Of a stretch of DNA of 64,000 nucleotides, positions 1 to 35,297 are shown piece after piece (the first letter of the stretch is position 1; each line of letters opens with the position of its first letter). Made by a program: the position numbers and the translations under genes. The stretch spans positions 1 to 64,000 of the forward strand of contig CAVTWJ010000009.1 in assembly GCA_963738405.1 (NCBI GenBank), in the 5' to 3' direction. Under the pieces are notes generated by a model. That model made no database searches. It saw only the letters and a list, made by a program, of their open reading frames with translations, and was not told the DNA's origin. The DNA is from a candidate division FCPU426 bacterium (GTDB taxonomy: Bacteria > Oederibacteriota > Muellerivitia > Muellerivitales > Muellerivitaceae).

Positions 1-1
1 C

Positions 2-283
2 GAGCGGGGCACACACACTATCCAGGCCGTGGTCAACGCCGTCTTGTCCTCACTGCGGTACGCGAACCGGAATGCCCGCCGTGGCTACGTCGGCAAGCCC
101 GGGCACTGGCGGTTCGCTACAGATAGTCACAGCTCGGCAGTCGCGCGGCACGCGATATCCGCCCAATCCTGGCCAAATCAGTACAACGAGTCGGGCCAAC
201 GGTGGCGTGCAGAACTAGTCATTCGGGACCGCCCACAACTACCGCCCCAACTATCACTCGCAGAACTCATTGGAGCGGAATAA
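2..283 (+). CDS. Hypothetical protein, probably 5'-truncated by the window edge
   Basis: Frame is open from position 2 to TAA at 283; no recognisable motif. Confidence 0.35.
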   Translation, partial: ERGTHTIQAVVNAVLSSLRYANRNARRGYVGKPGHWRFATDSHSSAVARHAISAQSWPNQYNESGQRWRAELVIRDRPQLPPQLSLAELIGAE

Positions 284-442
284 GCCACGTGGTAGTCCGT
301 TTCCGTGCGGCCCGAGGCCCGTCTCGACTACTCGGGCGCACCGGCTGGACCTAACGGGCGGGTTGTCTAATCGGCGTTGGAGGGCTACAGGGACTTGAAC
401 CACGGACCTCTTCCGTAGTAATAGGGTAGCGGCGATGGCGGG

Positions 443-668
443 ATGACGCGGGGGTGACCGGCGCCGGAACGCGCGGCAGGACCGGCTGCGGAAGCTGCTG
501 CTGCGCGATGGCGCGGTGATCGGCATCGACCTGGCCGAGGATAAGCAGGCGCTGGTGGTGATCGATCACGATGTGCGGGTGCTGGCCCGCAAGACGGTGC
601 GGGCCAAAGCGTTCCGGCTGGGCCAGGCGGTGGACAGGCGCGGGCGAAGGGGTTTGAGCGGGCGATAG
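443..668 (+). pseudogene. IS110-family transposase N-terminal relic (DEDD domain fragment)
   Basis: ATG at 443, then a +1 G shift into GDRRRNARQDRLRKLLLRDGAVIGIDLAEDKQALVVIDHDVRVLARK; GID is the first catalytic motif of IS110 enzymes; truncated at TAG 668. Confidence 0.75.
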
Positions 669-669
669 T

Positions 670-1095
670 GTGCGGATCTTCGGCATCCGCGACCGGATCG
701 AGCAGGGCTACAAGTAGGTCAAGGACGAACTCGGCTGGGCTGATTTCTAGGTCCACTCCGATCTTGCGATCCGTCATCACCAGGTACTGGTCAACTACGC
801 GTTCAGCTTCTGCTGGGCCGCCTGGATCGCTGATCACGTGCCACAGCACGACGCGGCACCGCTGCCGGAACCGGGCCGCGGAGAGAGGGGGCCGCCCGCC
901 GCGACGGACCCGCCGCGTCCTGGCCCCGGGCGATCCGGGCGGTCCGCGCCTGGCTTTCCCCTGGATCGCATTGCAGCGCTGGTGGGCCGCATGGTCCAAA
1001 GCGCCCCCGCCCCGCCAGCTCCAAGCCTTGATGGACTCGGTCGCGGCTGGCTATAGCCTGCACCTCTACATCTCGAATTAACAATCTACCATTAG
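670..1095 (+). pseudogene. IS701-family transposase C-terminal relic
   Basis: One frame reads GIRDRIEQGYK*VKDELGWADF*VHSDLAIRHHQVLVNYAFSFCWAAW (two in-frame TAG stops); another frame ends RWWAAWSKAPPPRQLQALMDSVAAGYSLHLY; both resemble actinobacterial IS701 transposases. Confidence 0.75.
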
Positions 1096-1261
1096 TCGAC
1101 GCCCGACCGGATCCCCGTGGCTGCCGTATCCCGCCGAGTAAGTCCCCAAGTTGCGGCACCTTGACGCCGGACCATACCTGGTGCGAAAATAAATATGAGG
1201 TGACGGCGTGGTTGTATGCCTAATCGCTGACCATTTCCAAGCTTAATCTGCTGACGCGCAG

Positions 1262-1969
1262 ATGTGGTGTCAGCAAATGTCGTATTCCAGGCTAAATCCA
1301 GGTAGAACAGGGTCAACGATCGCGGAGTCGGGCCTAAATGCAAGTTACGCGGCTGCGTTCAGCATACCTACTCTGTGCATTGACGAATTCCTAAGCCAGG
1401 CGGACGCAGGCAGAATCCTGCAGGAATGCATTGACCTCAGGAAGGTATACTTGCAGGCGAGCGTGTTCGACGGCCCTGCCGCCACGAAAATTAACCTTGA
1501 TTACCGCGTAAATGACGTCGTCATGATTGACGATATTTTCCGCAGCGAGCCGCATCGATCAGATATCCTGACTATCCTGAAGGAAAGAGTCTGGGATGTG
1601 GAGTCCCAGTCTCTATGGCACGACGGATATTATATTTTTGATATCATCAATTACTCGACTTGGCGGGAGGCGGTAGTCTCGCGATATGGAGACGGGAATT
1701 TCTATAAGAAACACCAAGACACTAGGCGCGACCATATCACCTATCGGCTCGTTACTATCGTATATTTCGTAAATAAGCTCCCTCAGAAGTTTACCGGAGG
1801 TTCCCTGGTCCTCTGGCAGGACGGTGAATGCCTCCGGATCGAACCCAAGCATAATCGTGCTGTCGTATTTCCTTCTTTCACCTTTCATGAAGTGGAAGTC
1901 GTCAAAATGCAACAAGGGAACTGGGATGAGGCGCGCTTCTCGATTAACTACTGGATGGGCTTCCAATGA
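1262..1969 (+). CDS. 2OG-Fe(II) oxygenase, prolyl-4-hydroxylase-like (start codon uncertain)
   Basis: YKKHQD (HxD), [38 protein letters not shown] (distal His) and RFSINYW (2OG-binding Arg); stop overlaps the next start (ATGA). Confidence 0.9.
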
Positions 1970-2724
1970 CGAATGGCGATACGCCTGTTGCGGTGACGGT
2001 GCAGGGTAAGCAGACGGCGATCAGTGGTGAGTCGCTTGGGCAATTCGTCAGGCCGCCGCTGGGGGGTAAGCCTTCGATTCAGGTCGGCGTCGGCGTGCAG
2101 GGCAGCTCCGATGACGGGCAGGGGGTGGTGGCTCAGAGCACTAATGGGACGGCGCTGACGGCCAGTTCGCAGGCCGGGTGGGCGATCGAGGCCACCGGCG
2201 TGGGCGGCCGCGCCATTGCGGGCGGCCTTGATCAGGTGAGCCGGCAGCACGCCGGCTTGTACGGTGAAAGTGACCAGCAGGGTGTTTTCGGCCGCTCTAC
2301 CGGGGCGGGGGACGGAATTCACGGGATTTCTGCCCAGGGCGCCGGCGTTCATGGCACGGGCGGAAATCATGCCGGGCTCTTCGACGGCAACGTGACCGTC
2401 AACGATAAGCTGTTCATTACCGGACTAGCCGCCGACCTGCTCACCACCATAACCAGCCTGCAGGCCGAGATAGCGAATTTCAGATCTCCGACTGGGCCGC
2501 CGGGACCTCCGGGAGTACCAGGCATCAATGGCCCGCCGGGCCCGCCCGGCCCCAAGGGAGCGTTCGATGCCGGACCTCCTGGACCTCTCGGAACACCGGG
2601 GCCGATAGGTGCTACAGGGCAGCCAGGGATCAGCGGGGGACCGGGTCCGCCGGGACCGCCAGGGCCTCCTGGTTTGCCGGGTTTTGGCTCAGAGGGGCCG
2701 CCGGGACCACCCGGAGACGTATAA
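1966..2724 (+). CDS. Collagen-like protein 1: Gly-rich beta-repeat N-domain, short coiled coil, C-terminal Gly-X-Y domain
   Basis: GLYGES/GVFGRS/GIHGIS/GVHGTG repeats; amphipathic helix [19 protein letters not shown]; 24 Gly-X-Y triplets including 10 GPP. Confidence 0.9.
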
Positions 2725-2739
2725 AGGAGGCGATTACCG

Positions 2740-3505
2740 ATGGCGAATGGCGATACGCCTGTTGCGGTGACGGTGCAGGGTAAGCAGACGGCGATCAGTG
2801 GTGAGTCGCTTGGGCAATTCGTCAGGCCGCCGCTGGGGGGTAAGCCTTCGATTCAGGTCGGCGTCGGCGTGCAGGGCAGCTCCGATGACGGGCAGGGGGT
2901 GGTGGCTCAGAGCACTAATGGGACGGCGCTGACGGCCAGTTCGCAGGCCGGGTGGGCGATCGAGGCCACCGGCGTGGGCGGCCGCGCCATTGCGGGCGGC
3001 CTTGATCAGGTGCAGCCGGCAGCACGCCGGCTTGTACGGTGAAAGTGACCAGCAGGGTGTTTTCGGCCGCTCTACCGGGGCGGGGGACGGAATTCACGGG
3101 ATTTCTGCCCAGGGCGCCGGCGTTCATGGCACGGGCGGAAATCATGCCGGGCTCTTCGACGGCAACGTGACCGTCAACGGCAAGCTGTTCATTACCGGAC
3201 TAGCCGCCGACCTGCTCACCACCATAACCAGCCTGCAGGCCGAGATAAGCAACTTCAAAGCCCCGCCGGGACCGCCAGGGCCACCGGGGCTTCAAGGCGA
3301 CCCAGGACCGCCCGGTCCGGTAGGTCCTAGTGGGCCCATCGGGGTTGGGCCACCCGGTTCTCCCGGCCAGCCCGGTACTCCAGGCCTTCCGGGTCCGCCG
3401 GGAATTGTCGGCGGAGGCCCGGTTGGCCCGCCAGGGCCCCAGGGCCCGCCAGGACCGCCGGGATCTGGGCCACCGGGTCCACCTGGGCCTCCTGGGAGCC
3501 CGTGA
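2740..3505 (+). CDS. Collagen-like protein 2 (paralog of protein 1); one extra base at about 3013 splits it into ORFs 2740-3042 and 2990-3505
   Basis: AAGGAGG RBS; first ~510 bp nearly identical to 1966-2480; GTGCAGCCGG versus GTGAGCCGG in copy 1; 24 Gly-X-Y triplets including 11 GPP with a different sequence. Confidence 0.85.
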
Positions 3506-3783
3506 AAGCCCGGCTGGGACCCGTCGGCCTGGAAACACTGGACACACTGATCATGGCGGGCATCGCGGCCACTCGCGCGGAGGCCATCCGCTGGGCCCTG
3601 GACCGTATCCGCGAGCGACCAGCGTATGAGCAGCCCGTGAACGCGTGCGCCATACCGGCAGACTCGAAGACGAGTTCTAACACGGTTGCGAGGGATAGCC
3701 CAGTTCATGTTCCGGTGTCGAGATGGTTGAGGTTGGCGCCAGAACTTCAGAACCGGATAATCTGCGTGCAGAAAACCCCTTGA
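3502..3783 (+). CDS. Small hypothetical protein or fragment, possibly ribbon-helix-helix-like ([21 protein letters not shown])
   Basis: GTGA overlap with the collagen 2 stop; only the N-terminal half looks protein-like. Confidence 0.35.
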
Positions 3784-4109
3784 TGGTCAGGTGCGCCGAT
3801 TCGGCAGGGATATGTACTTAATGTCCGGCTGTCACGCTCGCTGGATGTTCGCTCTCCGTAACAGCCAATGTACGCGCCGAGGGTTGTCGTCCGCTGTACT
3901 TACGGGCGACCCATTCAAAAGGCCGTCGCTGCCGGCACCGGGCGTGCGGGCGAGCGGGTCGACGTATGGACGTTGCGCGCCATGACCATCGCCGTCGAGG
4001 CGTTCGCCCGCCGATGTGCCGGATAACCGGCCATTATCGCTGATAGCCCGGTCTGTCGTCCTACGGGGGACGGCTGTGACTTTAGCCGTTGGATGGCCCG
4101 AGTCTTTGG

Positions 4110-4280
4110 GGCGTTCTGGCCGGTCCAGGTCGGGGGCGAGCGCGGCTGGTGCCGGTCAGGCCCTCGTCGAGGTGGCTCCCGTCGTCCGAGATGGCGAGCG
4201 CGGTCAGGGACTGTCGCTGGGCAGTGCTCCGCTGTCCTGCAAACAGCGGAGCACTCGGCGTAGCCGATGAGTCTGCCCAT
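4110..4280 (-). pseudogene. Degraded serine recombinase (resolvase) N-terminus
   Basis: MGRLIGYAECS (YARxS-like), then in another frame TAQRQSLTALAISDD..HLDEGLTGTSRARP, matching the resolvase G.sG....RP motif. Confidence 0.65.
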
Positions 4281-4433
4281 CCCGGCACAGTTCCGGTTGG
4301 TCCCGGTCACCGGGCTATCGAACGGGCTGGTCTATCGGACAGCGTTCCCGCGGTCCTTGAGGACCTGGATAGAGATAAAAGCGCGCTAGGCGAGCAGGGT
4401 CAAATGCTGGTGCTTGCTGTCAGACTTTTGGCT

Positions 4434-6630
4434 ATGGGTGGGCGAGTTCGCGGCTTGTGGCCGTTTGTCGCGGTTGGGGCAATCGCGGTGGTCACGGCGG
4501 CAGGCCTGGTTGTGGTGTGGCGGTCTCCGCACCGCGACGAGCTGGAGGGCTTCGCGGGGCTCGCCATATCGGTGACGGGTATCGCCGCGGGCTGGATCGC
4601 CTGGCTATGGCGGGCCAGGAGCCAGCAGGCCAGCGGGGCTGTTTCCGGGCAAGAATCCGGGCGACTTGCGGAGCTGCTGGCCGGGTCGGTTGACGAGGAG
4701 TGGACCCGGGCGGCCGGTGAGCGGGGGTTGCTGGAGCCAGTGCCCATTCCGGTTCGGTGGCAACGGCCGGCCGCGTCGTTCGCCGGGCCTGCCGCGGCCG
4801 CGGTGGCCTCGACGCGGTTTGCGCCGCTGCCCGGGCTTGCCGCAACCGGGGAGCAGCGGCTGCGGGCGGGCCAGGTGGGTGAGCTGCATGAGGTGTACGG
4901 GGGATTGGGGTCGGGGCGGCTGGTGATCGCGGGCGGCCCCGGATCGGGGAAGAGCAGCGCGGCTGTACTGCTGATCCTGGCCGCCCTGCGCTACCGGCGG
5001 AGCGTCGCGGAGAAGGTCCGGCCCGAGGTGCCGGTGCCGGTGATGTTCACCTTGCAGGGGTGGGACCCCGGCACTCAGCGGGTTCGGGACTGGCTGGCTG
5101 AGCGCCTGTGGCGGACCTACCCGCTGTTCGCGGGCAAGCAAGGGGCAGGGGCGGCACGTGACATGCTCGATGAGGGCCGGATCGCGGTGATCCTGGACGG
5201 GCTGGATGAGATCCCTGAGGATCTGCGGCCAGCCGTGCTGCGGGCGCTTAGCCAGCAGGCAACCTTCCGGCTGGTCCTTTTGACCCGCAGCGCCGAGATG
5301 GCTGATGCCGCGGCCCGGGCCATGCTGCAGGGCGCGGCGGCCATCGAGTTGCAAGACATCGACCCGGGTACCGCCGCCGGTTACCTCACCCGCACCCAGC
5401 TCGACCCCCCGCCGCAAGGCTGGCATGAGCTGACCAGCCGCCTGCGGTTGGAACCGGGCAGCCCGCTGGCGCCGGCCTTGAACAACCCGCTGATGCTCAC
5501 CCTGGTCCGCGACACCTACCACGCCGGAGACGACGCAGGTGAGCTCCTCGGCTTGCGCGGCGCGGCCGGGCAGCCCGCCTCGAGCGGGGACATCACCGGC
5601 TATCTCCTGGACCGGGTACTGCCCGCCGCCTATACCCAGCAGCCGGGCGAACCACCGCCCCGCTATGACCTGCTGACCGCGGAACGCGCGCTGCGGTGCA
5701 TCGCCGCGCGGATGAACACAGACGGCACCCGGGACCTGCGATGGTGGCACGTTCCTGCCTGGGCCCATGCCGCCCCTCGCGTCATCGCGACCTGGCTCGG
5801 CGCCGTATTCGCGGCCGGGATCGCGGCCACGATCGCAGGGGGATCGCGCTCGCCTCCGTGGCCGGGCGCGGGCGGGGATAGCGGACGGGATCGCGGTCGG
5901 GCTCGTGGCCGGGATAGCGGCCGGGATAGCGTTCGGGCGGGGAAACAAGATCCCCAAACGGATGGCGCCCGTGCGGTGGCGACAACTTTTTCGACGCAGG
6001 CCGGTTGTGGTGGGCGTCCTGGCCGGGCTCGTGGCCTGGCTCGCTGTTCGGGTTCGCGGGCGGGCAGGCCGCGGGCTGCGCGGGCGGGCTCGAGCCCGGG
6101 GTCGTGGTCGGGACTTGTGGCCTGGCTTGGGGCCGGGGTTGTCACCGGGATGTCCCGGCCAGGAACTGACAACATCAGTCCCCTTAGTCCACTCTCCTCA
6201 TGGCGCAGTGATCGAGCGTTCGGGCTCGTGGTCGGGTTCGTAGTCGGGCTCGTGGTCGGGCTCGGCGTTCGGGTTCGTCGGCTCGGGCTCGGGTTCGATC
6301 GTGGGCGAGTCCCTGTTCGGGCTCACGAGCGGGCTCGTGGCCGGGCTCGTGGGCGGGCTCGTGGTCGGGCTCGTGGCCGGGCTCGCGGTCGGGCTCGTGT
6401 ATCCCCAGTCGTGGTCATCCTCCCTCGCGTTTGCACAGCTCGCTGCATCTGACCGGACTCCGGTTCGCCTCATGCGGTTCCTCGAAGACGCCCGCAGCCG
6501 CAACGTCTTGCGCACGGTCGGGCCGGTCTACCAGTTCCGCCACGCCCGCCTGCAAGACCGCCTGGCCGCCCAGGAATCGGCAACTGGAAAGGGGCCCGGC
6601 AAGCCCGGCCTAGCGGCAGGAGGCGCCATG
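4434..6630 (+). CDS. NACHT/STAND NTPase with N-terminal TM helices and C-terminal Gly-rich TM repeats; several frameshifts after about 5840
   Basis: Walker A GGPGSGKS, Walker B VILDGLDE, NPLML, GLVxG repeats split across frames, C-terminal LMRFLEDARSRNVLRTVGPVYQFRHARLQDRLA. Confidence 0.85.
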
Positions 6631-8675
6631 TTCACCATGATCACTCTACGCTGCCCCGGGGGAAGCGGAGACATGTCGAGCGGTCCGCCAATGCTATCGA
6701 ATATCGAGAATCCGACATTCCCATACTTCAACTGAAGCGTGGTAAGATTAAATGTGGTTTGCCCCAAATTATAAAGCGTGTCGTATGCGACGTTTGAGAG
6801 CCCCACTGATCCAGCACGCCAAGATTATTAAGCGGCGGCTTGATGCTATCGATCTGCGGCTTATAGATACTGGTGACGACCGTGAGGTTTCCTGCTACGT
6901 CATAGATATCCATTATCAGCTCTGCGGGTTTTGTCGGATCGGTGGGATACATCCAATAATCGCTGGTATCGATTCCGGCGCCTTCGATAAAGTTTGGATC
7001 GATGATATAGGACATATTATAGGAGGTATCTGCCTGGATCGCAGAAAGTAAGGACTGCTGGTTAACTCCATCCGGCAGGAGACCGGAATCGCTCACATGT
7101 ACATAGGCATTCAAACACTCACCAACGGTATCGACTTTCGGCGCCACGGTATCCGGCGAGTGAAATGTACCGGTTGCGAACGGTCCAGACCAGTGCGTAG
7201 GACTCGTCATATCCATAACCATAGACATATACCCCACGCCATCCGTATCGCCATTGATAATATGCGCGCCCGGAGCGATCTGCGGAATGTTAAAGATCTC
7301 GAAGGTATCGTCAATGCACTGGCTCGTCTTGCCTAAAATGCTTTGGCCATCGAACTTCGTATTCTTCTCATCGTTCACATTGATAATGATATTCGCATAG
7401 TTCACGTAAGGAACGATATTACCGACGCTTTGCGGCGTTTGGAAGAGCACGGTCTTGGTAAATTGCTCTTTCGGATTGATAACGCACTCGGCAGGATCGC
7501 CGAGGCCGTTGTTATGATCCGGATAGGTTGAGCTATTGATGTACCATACACAGAGGAACGGTTCTTTGCTCCAGAATTTTTGACCGAGTTCAAGCTCATC
7601 CCAATAGATACCGTATTGATTATCGATAATGCACTCGGTATGCTGGCCGGTTTGGCAATCCTGACGATAGATCGTCTGTCCTGGCACGGAAGAAATGAAG
7701 AGATACCGCGCAAAATCATGGCCCGGCATTCCCGGCGGCTGGATGGGGTTCGTGGCGTAATAGGTTTCTGCCCAGGTACGAATCGGGGGGAGCATATCCT
7801 CGACGTGATCGCAATAAGGGAAGTCGGCAGGGATATTCGGACAGCCCGATCCGCCGGAAACACCGACGGGCTGGTTCGAATGGACGATCGTGCCGGTCAT
7901 ATCGAAATTATCGCCATCGGATGCGCGAACCGGCATCATCTGAACATCTTGTCCGCGGTTAAGCGTGAAGATGCCGGTTGCCCTTGTGGATACACTACGA
8001 TGCCTGAATTGGCATCGCCACTGACGTTTCCAGACGTGCATTGACGGCAATCGCACGAAGGGGTGATGGTGACCTGCGTATTATCCTGATCTGCGGTGAT
8101 CGACCATCGTCGATGGAAGATCGTAGACATACGTGCCGAATCCCTCGAAGAGCGAACCATAGGCTCCGCAAACGTAATCGGTACCCCAGCCGATCGTGGG
8201 AATGATATAGGAACCGTCCGACGTGTACGGATTGTGGGACATATCATAGACTGTGATGTCCGCCGTTGGCGAATACACATGAATCGCTTTGTTTTCTACT
8301 TCACCGCTCGACTCCAGCTCCCAGAATTCCGGGATCTTGAAGCTGCCGATCTTATACGCCTGGATCGGAACGGGTAGTTCTGCTGCCGTTCGACTCGACG
8401 AAGGCCGTGCAGTTTTCGGCGGACGTGATATAAATACGCATGTATTTACCGCCCAAGTCCTCGCCCCAGTAATTGGACATCATGGAGAACCAGAAATCGC
8501 GGCCGGAATGCGGCGGATGCTGCGGGTTCTTGACGATCGTGTGATGGATCAGCGCATTCTGTGCCGATACCGTGCCGCTTGGAAGCAGCACCACCGAGCA
8601 AAGGACGACAAGCGCCGCCCAGAATGCCGCACGGATCTTCAAAGACGAAGAAACGAAAGAGTTAGAATGTGTCAT
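6630..8675 (-). CDS. Secreted IgGFc-binding-domain protein; frameshifted and 3'-truncated at the junction
   Basis: Signal-like N-terminus, GRDFWFSMMSNY, DGSYIIPTIGWGTDY, SNQPVGVSGG, CDHVEDMLPPIRTW across ORFs 8352-8675, 8081-8278, 6728-8056 and 6528-6806. Confidence 0.75.
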
Positions 8676-27892: not shown

Positions 27893-28057
27893 ATGGGCAA
27901 CGAGGAATTGCTTTCGAGGCTGCAAGACCTGTCGCCGGGCCCGCACGCGCTGTTTGTGGTGGACCCGGGCGAATGGGTGAAGGGAATGACGGGCCCAAGA
28001 AACAGAACCTGGGTCTTCAACCCGAAAAGGACGAAGCTTGAATTGGATGTGCCGTAA
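27893..28057 (+). pseudogene. Displaced alternative 3' end of the 721-aa gene (165-bp repeat, copy 2)
   Basis: Reads MGNEELLSRLQDLSPGPHALFVVDPGEWVKGMTGPRNRTWVFNPKRTKLELDVP* in an intact frame. Confidence 0.9.
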
Positions 28058-28076
28058 AAGAGGTATATAAAGGGAA

Positions 28077-29075
28077 ATGAATTTGGATTACGTAGTCTGT
28101 AATTTTCTTTTTTCAGATCTGCCCCCTTTTACGATAATTAACGAATCGTTTGAACTTAAGGATATAAATTCGATGTTTTTAAAACCGAAAACTTTAAAAA
28201 TAAAACTTTACGAAGTGCCAACAACCAGCGAAAAAAATGTTATTGCAAAACTCCGAAAGGAGCTATTCCCAAAAGCTAATAAAGAAATGTTTTGGGGCAT
28301 TGTCGCTGAATGGTATTCCTGGCTCAAACCAAACTGCAATCAAATTTCTATTTCAGACGCAGGCTATAAAACCAAATACGGGAAGGTTAATGTCAAAGAA
28401 ATCGCTATTGCTCTTAACCGCCATCCAATAATTCTTCATGACAGTCAGTATCTCGAAACAACTTTTGTTCTATTACCTTGCTACCGATTTCTTTTTGACA
28501 ACACCCTTGAGCCGTTGAGAATTTCGAAAGAACTTTTCGAAGCATTGAAAGAAATTAAAGAAAGAGATGCAAAAGAACATACTTCTATTTCATATAAGGC
28601 TGACGAGCTGACCAAACGACTTGGTATGAAAGTAGATGAACCTTTCGAGGAAAAAATCCGTATGTTGTGCGATATAGGATTATTACACTGCTCTTCTTGG
28701 TCTTCAGGTTCCTCATTATTTGAAAATGCAACACTCAACATCAGCATTAAACCAACGGAAGAATATGAAGAGTGGTATAGAAATTTAATTTCTAATTTTG
28801 AGCGAGACGTAAATGACAACAAGAGAGAATTCTGGAAAAAAAACAAATTTTTACGTTGGCTCTCAGGGAAGGAATCCCTGACTGATAATGTTCTTGTTCC
28901 TGGTGAAATTTCCATTCAGGCTCAAAAACCAAGAATTTTACAAATTTCTATCCTTATACTTTTTATCCCACTCCTGGGCACAACCATCTATTTTGCTTCT
29001 CAAGCTAATTGGCCAGCCTGTGGAATATTTTTAACAGCAATATTAGCTTTATTGAATCTCGCCAAAGGGATGTAG
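28077..29075 (+). CDS. Hypothetical AT-rich protein with two C-terminal TM helices
   Basis: 332-aa ORF with a hydrophobic C-terminal hairpin; no family recognised. Confidence 0.75.
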   Translation: MNLDYVVCNFLFSDLPPFTIINESFELKDINSMFLKPKTLKIKLYEVPTTSEKNVIAKLRKELFPKANKEMFWGIVAEWYSWLKPNCNQISISDAGYKTKYGKVNVKEIAIALNRHPIILHDSQYLETTFVLLPCYRFLFDNTLEPLRISKELFEALKEIKERDAKEHTSISYKADELTKRLGMKVDEPFEEKIRMLCDIGLLHCSSWSSGSSLFENATLNISIKPTEEYEEWYRNLISNFERDVNDNKREFWKKNKFLRWLSGKESLTDNVLVPGEISIQAQKPRILQISILILFIPLLGTTIYFASQANWPACGIFLTAILALLNLAKGM

Positions 29076-29077
29076 AA

Positions 29078-30292
29078 ATGTCGAATTCCGAAATTCCAAT
29101 CTCCAAAAATTATTTCTCGGCCAAAGGCAAAAATGCAGAAAGTTTTTTATACGAGCTTTCTAAGAAATCTTTTTTTGTAGATTGGTGTTATTTAAACCCT
29201 CTGTTACCAGACGGAAAAGAATTATGTGATCTGTTAATTGTGTTTGACGAAATTGCAATTATTTGGCAAATAAAGGATTTGAAGCCCAATAAAGACGGAG
29301 GAATTAAAGAGTCCGATTTTGAAAAAAACATAAAACAACTGTCCGGCGCACGCCGTACCCTTTTCGACCTTAAAACTCCAATTAAGTTGAATAATCCAAG
29401 ACGAGGGGAAGAAATATTCAACCCTGAAAAAATCAAAGAAATATATTTAATTGCAGTTTTCATCGGTGATTTTCAATCAAGCATTCCTTTAATTGATTCA
29501 ATCAAAAAATATTTGGTCCATATTTTCATAATGCCTTTTTTAGAAATAGTTTTGAACGAGCTAGATACCATTACTGATTTTATAGAATACTTAAGGTGCA
29601 AAGAAAAATTCATTACTTCTTTTAATCAACGGATAATTACTCTTTCCGGCGAAGAAGATTTTCTCGGTCTTTATCTTTTAAATGATAGAAATTTAGACAA
29701 ATTCAATAATGCTATTTTATTAACCGTTGCGGATGATATTTGGAAAGGATTTTCCACTTCTGAAAATTACAACCGCCGAGAAAAGGCTGATAAGAAAAGT
29801 TATTTTTGGGACAATCTGATTAATAGAGCCCATGAAGCAGAAACGGGAGAATACGAAATAATAGCTCGTGAATTGGCTCGTTTAAATCGCTTTGAAAGAA
29901 GATTGGCAAGTAACAGTTTTATTGAAGCCCATTTGTCGCTAAAGAATGATCCGAATAAATTATTCAAACGAACAATAGCAATTAAAGGCGTTTCTTATTG
30001 TTTTTTATTCGCTGGTGAAGCTGAAAAAGATATCGAGGAACGAAAAAATCTCTTGTTTCATACTTGTATGATTGTACGGATGCTTAAGCCTGAAAACAAA
30101 ACCGTAATCGGCATTTCTACAAGTGCTGCGTATGGCCCAACATTTGGATATGAGTTTTTTTATATAAATATTCCAGAACTTTCTCAAAGTGATATTGATG
30201 AAATCAAACAATACCAAAATAAGTTAGGGATCTACACCAAACCAGAAGAACACTTCAAGCAAGAATGGGAATATCCAAAAGATAAATCTTAA
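29078..30292 (+). CDS. PD-(D/E)XK / NERD-like nuclease-domain protein
   Basis: NAESFL..GKELCDLLIVFDEIAIIWQIKD fits the E..D..(Q/E)xK pattern; starts 2 bp after the previous stop. Confidence 0.65.
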   Translation: MSNSEIPISKNYFSAKGKNAESFLYELSKKSFFVDWCYLNPLLPDGKELCDLLIVFDEIAIIWQIKDLKPNKDGGIKESDFEKNIKQLSGARRTLFDLKTPIKLNNPRRGEEIFNPEKIKEIYLIAVFIGDFQSSIPLIDSIKKYLVHIFIMPFLEIVLNELDTITDFIEYLRCKEKFITSFNQRIITLSGEEDFLGLYLLNDRNLDKFNNAILLTVADDIWKGFSTSENYNRREKADKKSYFWDNLINRAHEAETGEYEIIARELARLNRFERRLASNSFIEAHLSLKNDPNKLFKRTIAIKGVSYCFLFAGEAEKDIEERKNLLFHTCMIVRMLKPENKTVIGISTSAAYGPTFGYEFFYINIPELSQSDIDEIKQYQNKLGIYTKPEEHFKQEWEYPKDKS

Positions 30293-30306
30293 GCTCTAAA
30301 AACACC

Positions 30307-31089
30307 ATGGAGGCTATTAAAATGCCATCCGAAATCCACACAGAAAATTCCGTAAAAGATAAATATAAAATCATGTATAAAAATTCTTACGCCTCAACTT
30401 TGCGAGACATTGCTGATTACGATTACATTTCGGCTCGACTTCTTCTTAGAAACCATTGCAAAGACCAATTTTTATATCTTGCCTACCAATCTCTAGAAAA
30501 GTACATGAAGTCCATTTTACTTTTTCATCTCCGAAAAAACAAAATCGGACATGATATTACAAAACTATTTGGTGAAATTTGTAAAATCACTGAGTTTGAG
30601 ATCGGAAATAATCCAAGAATAAAGACCTTTATTGAAAGGTTTGATAATACTTTCGGGGACCCAAGATATTTATCGCTAGGATTTGCCGGTGATTATAAGT
30701 ATCTATTCGAACTAGATTATGCAGTTTGGAAACTTAGGATTTATTGTCAGCCTGAGAGAAACAGAATCTCTTTATTGGAAAAGGCGGACGAAAAAATATT
30801 GAAAAAATCATTCTTGAAAGGGACATTCTTACTTTGGTCGGGAGTATTAGAAGATGTTCATAAGGAAAAGAAAAAGGGCTTATATCAGAGTTTGGTTTGG
30901 TTTAATTCTTACTTTGGTCGTTTCAAAGGGAATGAAATGTCTCTCATGGGATATTGGTTTAAAAATTCTCCGTTGTTTTCAGGCAATGAAGAAAGACGCC
31001 TCTTAACTTACGAATCCATAAAGGACTATGTTCACATACCCCCGAAAATAAAAAACTACTTTGAAGATTTGAAAAAAAGGAACTCCTGA
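30307..31089 (+). CDS. HEPN-domain protein
   Basis: ADYDYISARLL..AYQSLEKYMKSILL..GHDITKL..RY. Confidence 0.8.
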   Translation: MEAIKMPSEIHTENSVKDKYKIMYKNSYASTLRDIADYDYISARLLLRNHCKDQFLYLAYQSLEKYMKSILLFHLRKNKIGHDITKLFGEICKITEFEIGNNPRIKTFIERFDNTFGDPRYLSLGFAGDYKYLFELDYAVWKLRIYCQPERNRISLLEKADEKILKKSFLKGTFLLWSGVLEDVHKEKKKGLYQSLVWFNSYFGRFKGNEMSLMGYWFKNSPLFSGNEERRLLTYESIKDYVHIPPKIKNYFEDLKKRNS

Positions 31090-31110
31090 ACTGGTATGGA
31101 AGAAACGGAC

Positions 31111-31136
31111 GGGGTCAGGCATGAAAAAAGAAAATT
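31111..31136 (+). repeat. 26-bp inverted repeat, right copy; a degenerate third copy lies at 32649-32672
   Basis: GGGGTCAGGCATGAAAAAAGAAAATT; 31106-31129 matches 32649-32672 at 20/24. Confidence 0.8.
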
Positions 31137-31257
31137 AAAGTTAATCGCACAACAATTACTAACATCACTTATATCCACGTCCTGAATCAGTTCGAACAAG
31201 ACCTTAAGTTGTGTCTCCGTTAGTGGTAAAAGTCGCTTTTAATTAAATGGATAAATA

Positions 31258-32661
31258 ATGGAACCAAATCCTATCGAACAGCCATCATCCGAACGGCAGG
31301 TTTACTATCCTGAAACGCTAAAGGGTTCAAAAGCCCTTTGGCCCTTAATTTTATTTGCTTCATTTGTTCCTTTGGGGTTCCTTTTTATATTTCTAAGCAT
31401 TTATTTCCATACGGGAAGGCTTTATTTCCCCTGGTGGTCACCACGAATCCGTTCTTTGTATGTATTTTGGGTTTTTAATTTACTGGTTGTCTTTTTGAGG
31501 TTGAAAAGTCAAAAAGCTCATGCCGAAACATCACCGGAGGGTCTTGCGCAAGTGAATGCTTTTGGGAAACAGGTCGATATTCCCTGGGATGAAATCGGCC
31601 AGGTTTTGGTGGATGAGGGCGGTATTGTTCGGGTTAAGGACAAAACCGGTAAAAAAACCATCAACCTTTCGAAGTTTTATAAAAATTTTGACCAACTGAA
31701 GAAAAGGGTTTTAGAAGAATACGAAACAAAAAGAATTCCCCAGGCGAAAGAAGCCGCCCTTTATGGCATGGCCTCGAAAGTCGGCATTATTTATTTTTGG
31801 GGTGGGTTATTTATTCTGATTCTTGGTCTGACATCGGTAGTAGGCGGTGTTATGACCCTCATGGGTTATGGTGACACGAAAGTTAATCCATTGGTCAATG
31901 AGATCATCTTTTTAGTCTTCGGCCCAGCCTTCATTGCCCTTGCGGTTTACTGTCTTTGGTGGGGTGTGAGAGTTAAATACAGCAAAATCGAAATTACTCA
32001 ATCGGGAATCGCCAGGCTAGAGAAAGCTGGAAACCGGGTTTTTATTAAATGGGAGGATGTAGCCCGGTTGACCAAAAGGGAACGGATGAAAGACATAGTG
32101 GTTACCAGCTTGGACCCATCTAAAAAAATCATGGTGGATTATCAATTTGAAGGGTTCGAGCAGATTCGAGACAGAGTTTTTATGGAATTCGAGAAAAGGC
32201 TGTCCTTGCCAGTGGTGGCCACGACCTACGGCCCAAAATGGATTCATCCCAACTTTGTCTTGATGGGATTTATGGGAGCTTTTATTGGACTATTGTGTTT
32301 CGCCCGATTCAGCCAAAAAACCACAGGCGATACGAGCGGGTTTAACTTCTTAATTATCCTTTTAGTGGGTTTTTATTTGTTCATTCTTTTCGCGGAAACA
32401 AAAGCGGTGAAGGCCCTGACCTTAAACGGAAATGAAATTATCCTTCGCAAACTTTTTGGAAAGAAAATTCTACAAGGACGTGAAGTGGCGGACATTTCCA
32501 TGGATAGTATCGCGGGCCAACACGGGACTTTTTATTACCGAATTCAACTGACTGCCGAAGATGGGAAGAAATACATCTTCGCCAATGATCTTGGAACAGA
32601 AGTGGGTGTTTATCCGGTCCTCAAGAAATGGCTGGAGAAACAAAAAGGCGGACGAGGCTAG
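31258..32661 (+). CDS. Membrane protein with three repeated 2TM plus bacterial-PH-like modules
   Basis: Internal repeats IPWDEI..NFDQLKKRVLEEYE and IKWEDV..GFEQIRDRVFMEFE. Confidence 0.7.
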   Translation: MEPNPIEQPSSERQVYYPETLKGSKALWPLILFASFVPLGFLFIFLSIYFHTGRLYFPWWSPRIRSLYVFWVFNLLVVFLRLKSQKAHAETSPEGLAQVNAFGKQVDIPWDEIGQVLVDEGGIVRVKDKTGKKTINLSKFYKNFDQLKKRVLEEYETKRIPQAKEAALYGMASKVGIIYFWGGLFILILGLTSVVGGVMTLMGYGDTKVNPLVNEIIFLVFGPAFIALAVYCLWWGVRVKYSKIEITQSGIARLEKAGNRVFIKWEDVARLTKRERMKDIVVTSLDPSKKIMVDYQFEGFEQIRDRVFMEFEKRLSLPVVATTYGPKWIHPNFVLMGFMGAFIGLLCFARFSQKTTGDTSGFNFLIILLVGFYLFILFAETKAVKALTLNGNEIILRKLFGKKILQGREVADISMDSIAGQHGTFYYRIQLTAEDGKKYIFANDLGTEVGVYPVLKKWLEKQKGGRG

Positions 32662-34379: not shown

Positions 34380-35297
34380 ATGGATAAGAGCCGGCGAAAA
34401 AAGAAACTTGATTCCCGCGCCTTATCCTTTCTCCTCCCGACCTATTTACCTCTGGATCAATTCAATGTTCTTGACGTGCAGCGTTGGCAATCCGGCCAAC
34501 AAAAGCTCAAGGATTTTTATGGGCAATGGTATTTCGAATTAGCCAGGCAACGTTCCCGGGCGAAAGAATCAATCAATCGCTCACTTCAGAAGGCAAGCAC
34601 ACCCTATTCTTTCTCCCCTTGTTATAGGGTATTTCGCTTTAAATGGGCCTTGGGCCCGCTTTCTTCCAAAGGAAGCCTTAAGGTTCCGGGTGGACGTTTC
34701 AATATCGGTGACATCGACGAGAGCTTATTTCAGAAATTTCCCGCCCTTTATTTGGCTGAAGACGCAGATACGGCTCTCTGTGAAATGATAGGACCGAGAC
34801 GAAATCCTTTGGAAACATTCAACCAATTTGATTTGGCTTCGATTAATGAGAAATCATTATCAATTGTGGCAACTTATGGGGAACTTGAATCGGTGGTGGA
34901 TTTGACCAATCGGGAATGCCTGAAAGAATTTATTGATGTAGTTAAAACTTTTACCGTTTCCAAAAGTCTTGAAAAATTGGCCCAGGAAGTGCGGATCAAT
35001 CTAAATGGCGGCACGGTTAATAGCGTGGATCTTCTTATGGAAACCCTCATGAATCCTAATTGGAGACAATTTCCAATGCATGTCGATGTACCCGCAAATT
35101 CTCAAATATTTGGACAGCTTGTTTGGGACGCAGGAATCGAAGGGGTTGTCTATTCCTCGAAATACACTAATAAAAAGTGTTTTGCGATTTTCCCGAATAA
35201 CCTCAAGGGCGGCGATTCATTTGTGGAAATTATGGATGATGTTCCCAAAGGCGCAATTAAGCGTTTAGACTCCAAAACGTGGGAAAAACTTATTTAA
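34380..35297 (+). CDS. RES-domain toxin (NAD+ phosphorylase / ADP-ribosyltransferase fold)
   Basis: YR, GGRFN, ALYLAED..ALCE, SQIFG..GIEGVVYSS..AIFP. Confidence 0.9.
   Translation: MDKSRRKKKLDSRALSFLLPTYLPLDQFNVLDVQRWQSGQQKLKDFYGQWYFELARQRSRAKESINRSLQKASTPYSFSPCYRVFRFKWALGPLSSKGSLKVPGGRFNIGDIDESLFQKFPALYLAEDADTALCEMIGPRRNPLETFNQFDLASINEKSLSIVATYGELESVVDLTNRECLKEFIDVVKTFTVSKSLEKLAQEVRINLNGGTVNSVDLLMETLMNPNWRQFPMHVDVPANSQIFGQLVWDAGIEGVVYSSKYTNKKCFAIFPNNLKGGDSFVEIMDDVPKGAIKRLDSKTWEKLI

Follow-up and report, generated by a model that had tools for sequence, protein, structure and literature searches.

Animal collagen prolyl 4-hydroxylases (C-P4Hs) possess an extra peptide-substrate-binding domain and a protein disulfide isomerase (PDI) subunit, and a mobile loop that encloses the substrate over the active site (the beta2–beta3 finger) is a feature of enzymes of the prolyl hydroxylase domain (PHD) type. 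According to one paper, 4-hydroxyproline at the Y position dominates collagen stability (PMC8233474). Passages of a review treat the lack of hydroxyproline (Hyp) in prokaryotic collagen-like proteins as an issue that is still being addressed, state that the Y position of bacterial collagens is most often threonine and report that the prolyl 4-hydroxylase (P4H) of Bacillus anthracis hydroxylates (PPG)5 and (PPG)10 in vitro at both the X and the Y positions, an activity listed for synthetic peptides only (PMC8968730). The present analysis concerns a gene for a 2-oxoglutarate (2OG)–Fe(II) oxygenase and the two collagen-like genes that follow it in a 64,000-nt stretch of DNA from a candidate division FCPU426 bacterium (contig CAVTWJ010000009.1), here termed the window; coordinates are those of the window unless another locus is named, and all features of the cassette lie on the plus strand. 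An earlier reading of the letters alone (the sequence-only reading) had seen in these genes a mobile hydroxyproline-collagen cassette and had taken the characterised bacterial P4Hs to act on EF-Tu, which is incomplete in view of the peptide activity cited above. Its observation was partly confirmed and its interpretation partly supported: the pairing suggests, without proving, that hydroxyproline collagen is made by some bacteria as well as by animals. On balance, we lean towards a collagen-plus-hydroxylase system built in bacteria from a PHD-like enzyme.

The oxygenase was assigned to the Pfam family PF13640 (2OG-FeII_Oxy_3) with 67.2 bits (cutoff 27, E 2.7e-18). The HxD..H..R set is intact, as had been noted from the letters, and its residues H151, D153, H209 and R225 are unchanged across 78 aligned family members. 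By analogy, H151, D153 and H209 are predicted to form the iron triad and R225 to bind 2OG through the C5 carboxylate. H209 and R225 are 16 residues apart; the corresponding spacing between the distal histidine and the arginine is shorter in PHD2. An AlphaFold model of the oxygenase (pLDDT 90.4, pTM 0.87, with residues 17–29 below 50) has the double-stranded beta-helix fold, for which Foldseek returned at least 500 matches in the PDB at E <= 0.001. Among the matches listed, all are PHD-type prolyl hydroxylases (DdPhyA, PHD2, PHD1, PPHD and Trichoplax PHD), with E values from 2e-11 to 4e-9, a probability of 1.00 and TM scores of 0.53–0.63 normalized to the query and up to 0.73 normalized to the target; Dictyostelium PhyA ranks first among them and PPHD has the target TM score of 0.73.

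A profile of the oxygenase family was compared with the sequences of the PDB, which gave 51 rows at E <= 10; matches at E <= 0.001 were considered to be significant. The 38 significant rows are all prolyl hydroxylases, 37 of them of the PHD type, and the remaining one (6iuq) is labelled merely 'Prolyl 4-hydroxylase'. PhyA was matched at 1.7e-8, PHD2 at ~2e-7 and PPHD at 1e-5; Tpa1 (0.06) and PiuC (2.2) fell below significance, and free-proline hydroxylases and other non-protein enzymes are absent from the significant matches. By every computational measure available, the oxygenase is thus predicted to be a protein prolyl hydroxylase of a PHD-like branch. The placement among protein prolyl 4-hydroxylases anticipated by the sequence-only reading was recovered; the enzyme is PHD-like within them and not C-P4H-like.

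A word-indexed search of 5.8 billion clustered proteins yielded 115 homologues, of which nearly all have ~210 residues and nearly all are metagenomic. These begin at the position of the second ATG of the window oxygenase (1277), which is the likely true start and would give a protein of 230 residues. One metagenomic homologue shares 93% identity (BLASTP, 86% of the query covered; 91% in alignments). The window enzyme carries a 20-residue in-frame insertion near its N-terminus (1292–1351, residues ~11–30) that is absent from all 77 other homologues in the alignment and is disordered in the model; the ends of the insertion share a short similar DNA motif, and it may be a small duplication. Fused oxygenase–collagen or longer forms were not found among 926 longer candidates, none of which scored, which is weak evidence, and no PDI-like gene lies near the oxygenase in the window. 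Matches on plasmids are distant (25–38% identity, nine of ten covering less than half of the query), and no collagen-like annotation was seen near the match in Eleftheria terrae, the one plasmid that was looked at.

Both collagen-tailed genes are present in tandem with Gly-Pro-Pro tails, as had been claimed; the second is frameshifted as assembled. The stop codon of the oxygenase gene (TGA, 1967–1969) overlaps the start codon of gene 1 (ATG, 1966–1968) as ATGA, confirming the overlap described earlier, and gene 2 starts 15 bases past gene 1 behind an AAGGAGG motif. The tail of gene 1 consists of 24 Gly-X-Y triplets in runs of 8, 13 and 3 separated by two 2-residue interruptions; 15 triplets have Pro at Y and ten are GPP, counts that a script reproduced from the sequence-only reading. 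For the tail of gene 2 the earlier counts (17 of 24 triplets with Pro at Y, 11 GPP) were obtained again when the register was reset by eye past three short interruptions, which gives runs of 8, 7, 5 and 4 triplets with 2-residue interruptions; the greedy register of the script gives 24 triplets with 15 Y prolines and nine GPP. The tails are almost uncharged, as had been stated, with five charged residues of 83 in the gene 1 tail segment and two of 87 in that of gene 2 (each segment opens 6–8 residues ahead of its first triplet and has a length that includes the stop character). Against the Pfam Collagen family (PF01391, cutoff 27.2), gene 1 scores 25.9 bits, just under the cutoff, and gene 2 33.1 bits, above it. 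Over the remaining ~59 kb of the window, none of the six frames contains a Pro-containing run of at least five Gly-X-Y triplets, so that the tails are more than a chance occurrence.

Before the gene 1 tail, the AlphaFold model contains a helix of 17 residues (156–172), in agreement with the short coiled coil proposed from the letters; its hydrophobic residues L157, I161, L164, I168 and F171 follow a heptad-like 4-3-4-3 spacing by reading, and the helix is presumed to be a trimerising coiled coil. Both genes encode a short helix of this kind and, before it, a glycine-rich non-collagen head of ~150 residues. The head, which like the break in gene 2 is absent from the sequence-only reading, was modelled as an extended chain nearly without regular secondary structure (pLDDT 74). 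All ten Foldseek matches of the head are streptococcal phage HylP tail-fibre chains, none of them significant (best E 0.28, probability 0.28), and in a protein atlas the head scores 0.76–0.79 against HylP, under the level that counts. A trimeric, fibre-like beta-helix is a reasonable guess for the head from these models. No N-terminal signal peptide is evident by reading in either fibre protein.

The heads of the two copies are near-identical: over their first ~570 bases they differ by two adjacent substitutions and by the extra C in copy 2, and the spacing of the repeat families shifts from 774 to 775 exactly at this base. The extra C splits copy 2 into two pieces, so that the gene is not intact as assembled; the base may have arisen by genuine mutation or through faulty assembly. 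The collagen tails of the copies are strongly diverged and about two-thirds identical. Near-identical heads with diverged tails (1963–3313) are the reverse of the usual picture of a variable head on a conserved stalk, and the pattern suggests that the heads have recently undergone gene conversion or that the tails are diversifying.

A scan for the oxygenase over 185,579 species, each represented by a single genome, gave five loci: two near-identical Acidobacteriota bins (L001 and L002), Candidatus Cybelea (L003), an alphaproteobacterium (L004) and a member of the Bryobacteraceae (L005). Linkage was measured as the distance from the oxygenase gene to the nearest Pro-containing run of at least five Gly-X-Y triplets. 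In four of the five loci this distance is 87–281 bases; with L001 and L002 counted as near-duplicates, linkage holds in three of four independent lineages, to which the window can be added. The DNA beyond the ±2 kb neighbourhoods of all six sources (95,983 bases) served as a control, and not one run of this kind was present there in any frame. The co-occurrence with Pro-rich collagen-like open reading frames (ORFs) that the sequence-only reading had looked for was thus found. The rarity of the family (115 hits in 5.8 billion proteins and five loci in 185,579 species) indicates a rare accessory gene and therefore not a housekeeping sensor.

The window included, the linked genes occur in four different arrangements with unrelated surroundings. 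In the window, the oxygenase gene precedes two collagen genes between an insertion sequence (IS) relic and a NACHT-like gene; in L001 and L002 one collagen gene lies upstream on the same strand, in the company of GreA, RuvX and YceG; in L004 two tandem collagen genes are convergent with the oxygenase gene, among genes for an amino-acid ABC transporter and sugar-nucleotide genes; and in L005 two tandem collagen genes lie upstream, near genes for a virion structural protein, collagen-like tail-fibre families and a giant ddrB–ParB protein. From these annotations the setting of L005 is prophage-like, and PHROG tail-fibre families match the collagen tails. The sugar-nucleotide genes of L004 lie ~200 bases to 4 kb past the collagen genes (the nearest of them, an epimerase ORF, starts at 8421, and the collagen ORF ends at 8255), and L004 also contains IS or transposase genes. 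The L001 collagen tail (5700–5817) changes frame relative to that of the near-identical L002 (5640–5753) and ends in a non-collagen peptide; this is probably a single-base error or mutation in a GC-rich repeat, and the comparison indicates that single-base errors in such repeats may be an assembly problem.

A maximum-likelihood tree of the oxygenases, with a midpoint root only and poor resolution within the clade, places the unlinked L003 inside a well-supported clade (100/99) with the window, L001/L002 and L004, and the linked L005 outside it. Collagen-linked members thus span the deepest sampled split of the tree, with the single unlinked member nested among them, which implies that the linkage spans the family; from its position, L003 looks like a secondary separation from the collagen genes. 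The neighbours of L003 encode a JmjC/cupin_8 protein, an HTTM-like membrane protein and a DCC1-like thiol-disulfide oxidoreductase, three genes on the same strand before the homologue (3273–6711), and look like a different protein- or peptide-modification cluster.

The collagen tail, and not the head, appears from these comparisons to be the common factor of the oxygenase neighbours. Each neighbouring collagen has Pro at Y in 9–15 of its 16–41 triplets and few charges, and the eight collagen regions next to an oxygenase gene contain one Lys in total; a role as a lysyl hydroxylase was considered and rejected on this ground. The L001/L002 and L004 proteins share the head–helix–tail architecture of the window proteins, and those of L005 have a different N-terminal head. 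A profile of the fibre head found 3260 relatives in a representative library (a word-based search found two), and none of the 151 examined (the best 150 of 3260, plus P0117) has a Pro-rich collagen tail; most of those examined end in a conserved globular domain that faintly resembles the Peptidase_G2 chaperone domain. As judged from the sequences, the collagen-tailed forms are a rare variant of a large fibre-like family, it is this variant that travels with the hydroxylase, and its tails, with their many Y prolines, appear to be suitable substrates.

A mechanism can be proposed in which enzyme and substrate are made together, coupled translationally in the window through the ATGA overlap. On the still-unfolded chains the oxygenase would convert the prolines of Gly-X-Pro triplets to Hyp, using Fe(II), 2OG and O2, and the product would most likely be 4-hydroxyproline. 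The glycine-rich head and the short coiled coil would then set the register of three chains, and the tail of ~24 triplets would zip into a triple helix made stabler by Hyp; such a helix has few residues, breaks and hardly any charge, and the obvious way to stabilise it would be Hyp at Y. What the sequences show is the gene anatomy, an intact catalytic set, the placement of the enzyme among prolyl hydroxylases and a linkage to collagen-like genes that is conserved across phyla and in a prophage. Beyond this we infer that the tails would be acted upon by the oxygenase, that the Y proline would be its target and that the chains would form trimers, gain stability from the hydroxyl group and serve as fibres. 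We slightly favour the oxygenase being a dedicated stand-alone cytoplasmic prolyl hydroxylase for the adjacent collagen tails. The wider proposal, that some soil bacteria (Acidobacteriota and an alphaproteobacterium), together with one or more of their prophages, produce genuine hydroxyproline collagen by means of a compact PHD-branch hydroxylase that arose independently of animal P4H, is quite plausible and falls a little short of probable.

Several points weigh against the adjacent tails as the substrate. In sequence the oxygenase is nearer to the PHD-type than to the collagen-type P4Hs: with the Chlamydomonas and B. anthracis P4Hs standing in for the collagen-type class, the family profile gave E values of 0.13–0.15 and 0.41–0.45, respectively, which are not significant, and PHD-type enzymes modify single prolines in specific motifs. 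The linkage count rests on five genomic loci, a small sample that leaves out ~110 metagenomic homologues, and at one of the five (L003) no collagen-like ORF lies within 6 kb of the oxygenase gene. Neither a secretion signal nor a partner structure was identified for the fibre proteins. Recombinant Pro-rich bacterial collagens reportedly melt near 35–39 °C without Hyp, so that Hyp is perhaps not needed. Finally, the frameshifted gene 2, the odd insertion in the oxygenase and the decayed flanks may mark the cassette as part of a dying island.

Three rival explanations were weighed. The oxygenase might have its target elsewhere (a translation factor, a ribosomal protein, a small molecule or a different residue, within the fibre head) and lie next to the collagen genes through co-transfer on mobile DNA. 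PPHD, Tpa1 and OGFOD1 act on a translation factor or a ribosomal protein, and the structural matches include the EF-Tu-binding PPHD with its target TM score of 0.73; moreover, the L003 gene exists without a collagen neighbour, IS or transposase genes are found close to the cassette of the window and within L004, and the distant cyanophage relatives described below adjoin tail-fibre genes that lack collagen repeats. Hitch-hiking would not, however, predict a linkage that is kept over four gene orders and four unrelated contexts, and the heads vary between loci while the Pro-rich tail is constant. The family is also far too rare for a universal target such as EF-Tu, and the significant PDB matches are without free-proline hydroxylases or non-protein enzymes. 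A target elsewhere is accordingly regarded as unlikely.

It seems rather unlikely that the window cassette is a decaying, non-functional remnant, whatever the family does elsewhere. The frameshift in gene 2, the low-confidence 20-residue insertion that is seen in none of the 77 other homologues, the IS relic upstream and the change of frame in the neighbouring NACHT-like gene would all fit such decay; against this, the oxygenase retains every invariant residue and 93% identity to a metagenomic homologue, gene 1 is intact and translationally coupled, and the indel could be an assembly error of the kind suggested by the similar frame change in L001 relative to L002. More doubtful still is hydroxylation of the tails for another end, with Hyp as an attachment point for sugar or as an oxygen-dependent switch of fibre assembly rather than as a thermal stabiliser. 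PHD-type enzymes are the classic oxygen sensors, the closest solved relative of the window enzyme is the Skp1 prolyl hydroxylase PhyA of Dictyostelium (by profile, and ranked first by Foldseek among the matches listed), the product of PhyA on Skp1 is subsequently glycosylated, and the sugar-nucleotide genes past the L004 collagen genes fit a sugar anchor. In the window, L002 and L005 the pair has no glycosyltransferase gene beside it, which argues against a sugar anchor, and in animals it is exactly such Y prolines, many of them in GPP runs, that are hydroxylated for stability. Stabilising hydroxylation of the adjacent tails remains the reading that we prefer.

The features of the cassette and its immediate flanks are listed in Table 1. 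The IS relic partly bears out the earlier claim of IS and resolvase relics on both sides: a nucleotide search matched 673–1097, at 74.5% identity, to the 3' part of a gene that is annotated as a transposase and carried by a Rhodococcus pyridinivorans plasmid, and no resolvase relic was found with Pfam or NCBIfam. By reading, positions 516–668 resemble an IS110-type N-terminus, which was not detected by Pfam, and Pfam found no transposase or resolvase domain in 16 stop-to-stop ORFs of the flanks. The related suggestion of a mobile cassette draws only indirect support, from the IS relic and from the unrelated contexts in other genomes; terminal repeats and a resolvase were not found. A consensus scan gave two promoter-like sites against 0.9 expected from shuffles, which is not significant alone. 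The 93-residue ORF behind gene 2 has one weak match (NCBIfam, E 4.9e-4 over 26 residues; none in Pfam) and may encode a ribbon-helix-helix-like protein. PADLOC gave no match for nine neighbouring proteins, and Rfam none over the whole window.

Table 1. Positions of the features of the oxygenase–collagen cassette in the window.
Feature	Position (nt)	Strand	Remarks
IS relic, actinobacterial type	516–1097	+	Upstream of the cassette; context, outside the system
Promoter-like site, TTGACG / 18-base spacer / GAAAAT, with TG	1161–1190	+	5' of the oxygenase gene; weak evidence
2OG-Fe(II) oxygenase, predicted PHD-like prolyl-hydroxylase type	1262–1969	+	235 aa; Pfam, AlphaFold, Foldseek, profile
Collagen-tailed fibre gene 1	1966–2724	+	252-aa ORF with head, helix and tail; stop TAA
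Gene 1, glycine-rich repeat head	1966–2418	+	Residues 1–151
Gene 1, short alpha-helix, presumed trimerising coiled coil	2431–2481	+	Residues 156–172
Gene 1, C-terminal collagen tail	2494–2724	+	Residues 177–252, up to the last residue
Shine–Dalgarno-like AAGGAGG	2724–2730	+	9 bases 5' of the gene 2 ATG; by reading
Collagen-tailed fibre gene 2, broken as assembled	2740–3505	+	Pieces 2740–3042 (100 aa) and 2990–3505
Extra C relative to copy 1	3013	+	DNA alignment of the copies
Gene 2, collagen tail	3269–3502	+	24 triplets
93-aa ORF, GTG start overlapping the gene 2 stop (GTGA)	3502–3783	+	ORF list

The oxygenase gene has a GC content of 50% and the collagen genes of 65–76%. A foreign origin of the collagen genes was considered on this basis and rejected: at third positions the GC content is 0.59 in the oxygenase gene and 0.53–0.55 in the collagen tails, nearby genes are alike, and the jump therefore reflects mostly Gly and Pro codons and not a separate origin. 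Collagen-like ORFs on the minus strand (for example 3292–3708) were discarded as mirror artefacts of the GC-rich repeats.

The first ~6.5 kb of the window (1–6700) form a mosaic of high GC content (63–74%) in which the only nucleotide matches are actinobacterial; it holds the IS relic and short stretches of Streptomyces NACHT genes. The remainder of the window has a GC content of ~54% and encodes diderm functions (an RND pump, a TolC-like protein and OmpA). Either the mosaic was acquired horizontally by a Gram-negative genome or the assembly is chimeric here. Its NACHT-like STAND NTPase gene (4089–6735) seems to be broken: the long ORF 4089–6452 ends in an implausible Arg-Gly repeat, and the Gly-Leu-Val-rich membrane-like repeats and conserved C-terminal part that would be expected lie in another frame (5767–6243 and 6301–6735). 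A tandem array of a 12-base repeat occupies 6216–6415 in the same region. Just past the mosaic, 6728–8056 on the minus strand encodes a 442-residue protein with a strong IgGFc_binding match (E 9.6e-30). Further on, 4 kb at 28000–32000 have a GC content of 34–37% and encode proteins without Pfam or PADLOC matches; this stretch adjoins a gene for a HEPN-domain protein, a RES-domain protein is encoded at 34380–35297, and the stretch may be a foreign island of the defence or toxin–antitoxin type.

No report of a native bacterial or phage prolyl hydroxylase paired with a collagen-like gene was found in full-text literature searches, which largely leave subscription journals outside. If the conserved pair is what it appears to be, it would be the first natural bacterial enzyme–substrate pair for collagen hydroxylation, would contradict textbooks, in which prokaryotic collagens are without Hyp, and would mean that the hydroxylation of collagen evolved a second time, independently, from a PHD-like ancestor. 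It also hints at hydroxylated phage tail fibres, and an enzyme of ~210 residues that needs no PDI partner and comes with natural substrates would be attractive for the production of hydroxylated recombinant collagen in E. coli.

The system resembles animal C-P4H and procollagen in that a 2OG/Fe(II) enzyme is combined with Gly-X-Pro-rich chains on which it presumably acts before the triple helix folds, and the Y-Pro content of the tails (15/24 and 17/24 triplets) is like that of animal collagen. It differs in that the enzyme consists of the ~210-residue catalytic domain only, without the peptide-substrate-binding domain or the PDI partner of C-P4H, and, having no signal peptide, would act in the cytoplasm and not in a compartment like the endoplasmic reticulum. 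The B. anthracis P4H is likewise a bacterial 2OG oxygenase that is active on collagen-like peptides; its branch is another one (the profile of the window family matches it at E 0.41) and, to our knowledge, no genetic linkage to a Y-Pro-rich collagen gene has been reported for it. PHD2/EGLN1, PhyA and PPHD are the closest enzymes by profile (1.7e-8 to 1e-5) and by fold and share the HxD...H triad and the arginine for 2OG. Their identity to the window oxygenase is, however, only 19–23%, and the known substrates of the PHD type are single prolines in HIF-alpha, Skp1 or EF-Tu rather than repeats; we know of no PHD-type prolyl hydroxylase that is linked to collagen genes.

Giant-virus P4H alpha subunits occur among the structural matches of the oxygenase (E ~2e-9). 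Giant viruses such as mimivirus, whose collagens come with hydroxylases and glycosyltransferases, provide the parallel of a non-animal genome with both collagen-like proteins and collagen-modifying 2OG enzymes (PMC9546862; see also Luther et al. 2011); in contrast to the present case, the viral modification that has been studied best is directed at lysine, to which sugar is added, the viral enzymes are larger and multidomain, and the hosts here are bacteria and a prophage with an enzyme of another family. Cyanophage 2OG-Fe(II) oxygenases are the nearest relatives outside the family (tblastn E values down to 2e-12, 24–27% identity), and the best structural match of all is that of cyanophage S-CAM9 (TM scores 0.72/0.82). 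In the T4-like phages S-PRM1 and S-CAM9 the oxygenase gene follows a baseplate hub gene and immediately precedes a tail-fibre gene, which has more than 2100 codons; S-CAM9 has two oxygenase genes in a row. Unlike the window proteins, those tail fibres are without Gly-X-Y runs of at least four triplets, so that a fibre substrate, if there is one in these phages, would not be a collagen, and the shared position may point to a wider link between this branch of oxygenases and fibre proteins.

The streptococcal proteins Scl1 and Scl2 and prophage tail fibres (HylP and the E. coli prophage collagens) are homotrimeric and combine a non-collagen trimerising part with a Gly-X-Y stalk, an architecture that is predicted for the window proteins too; the window head is weakly similar, below significance, to the triple-stranded beta-helix of HylP. 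The arrangement found here differs in that the collagen part stands at the extreme C-terminus with nothing after it. The window proteins are further set apart by a Y position that is mostly Pro and not Thr or a charged residue, by the absence of an LPXTG anchor or signal peptide, and by the hydroxylase gene that is attached to them.

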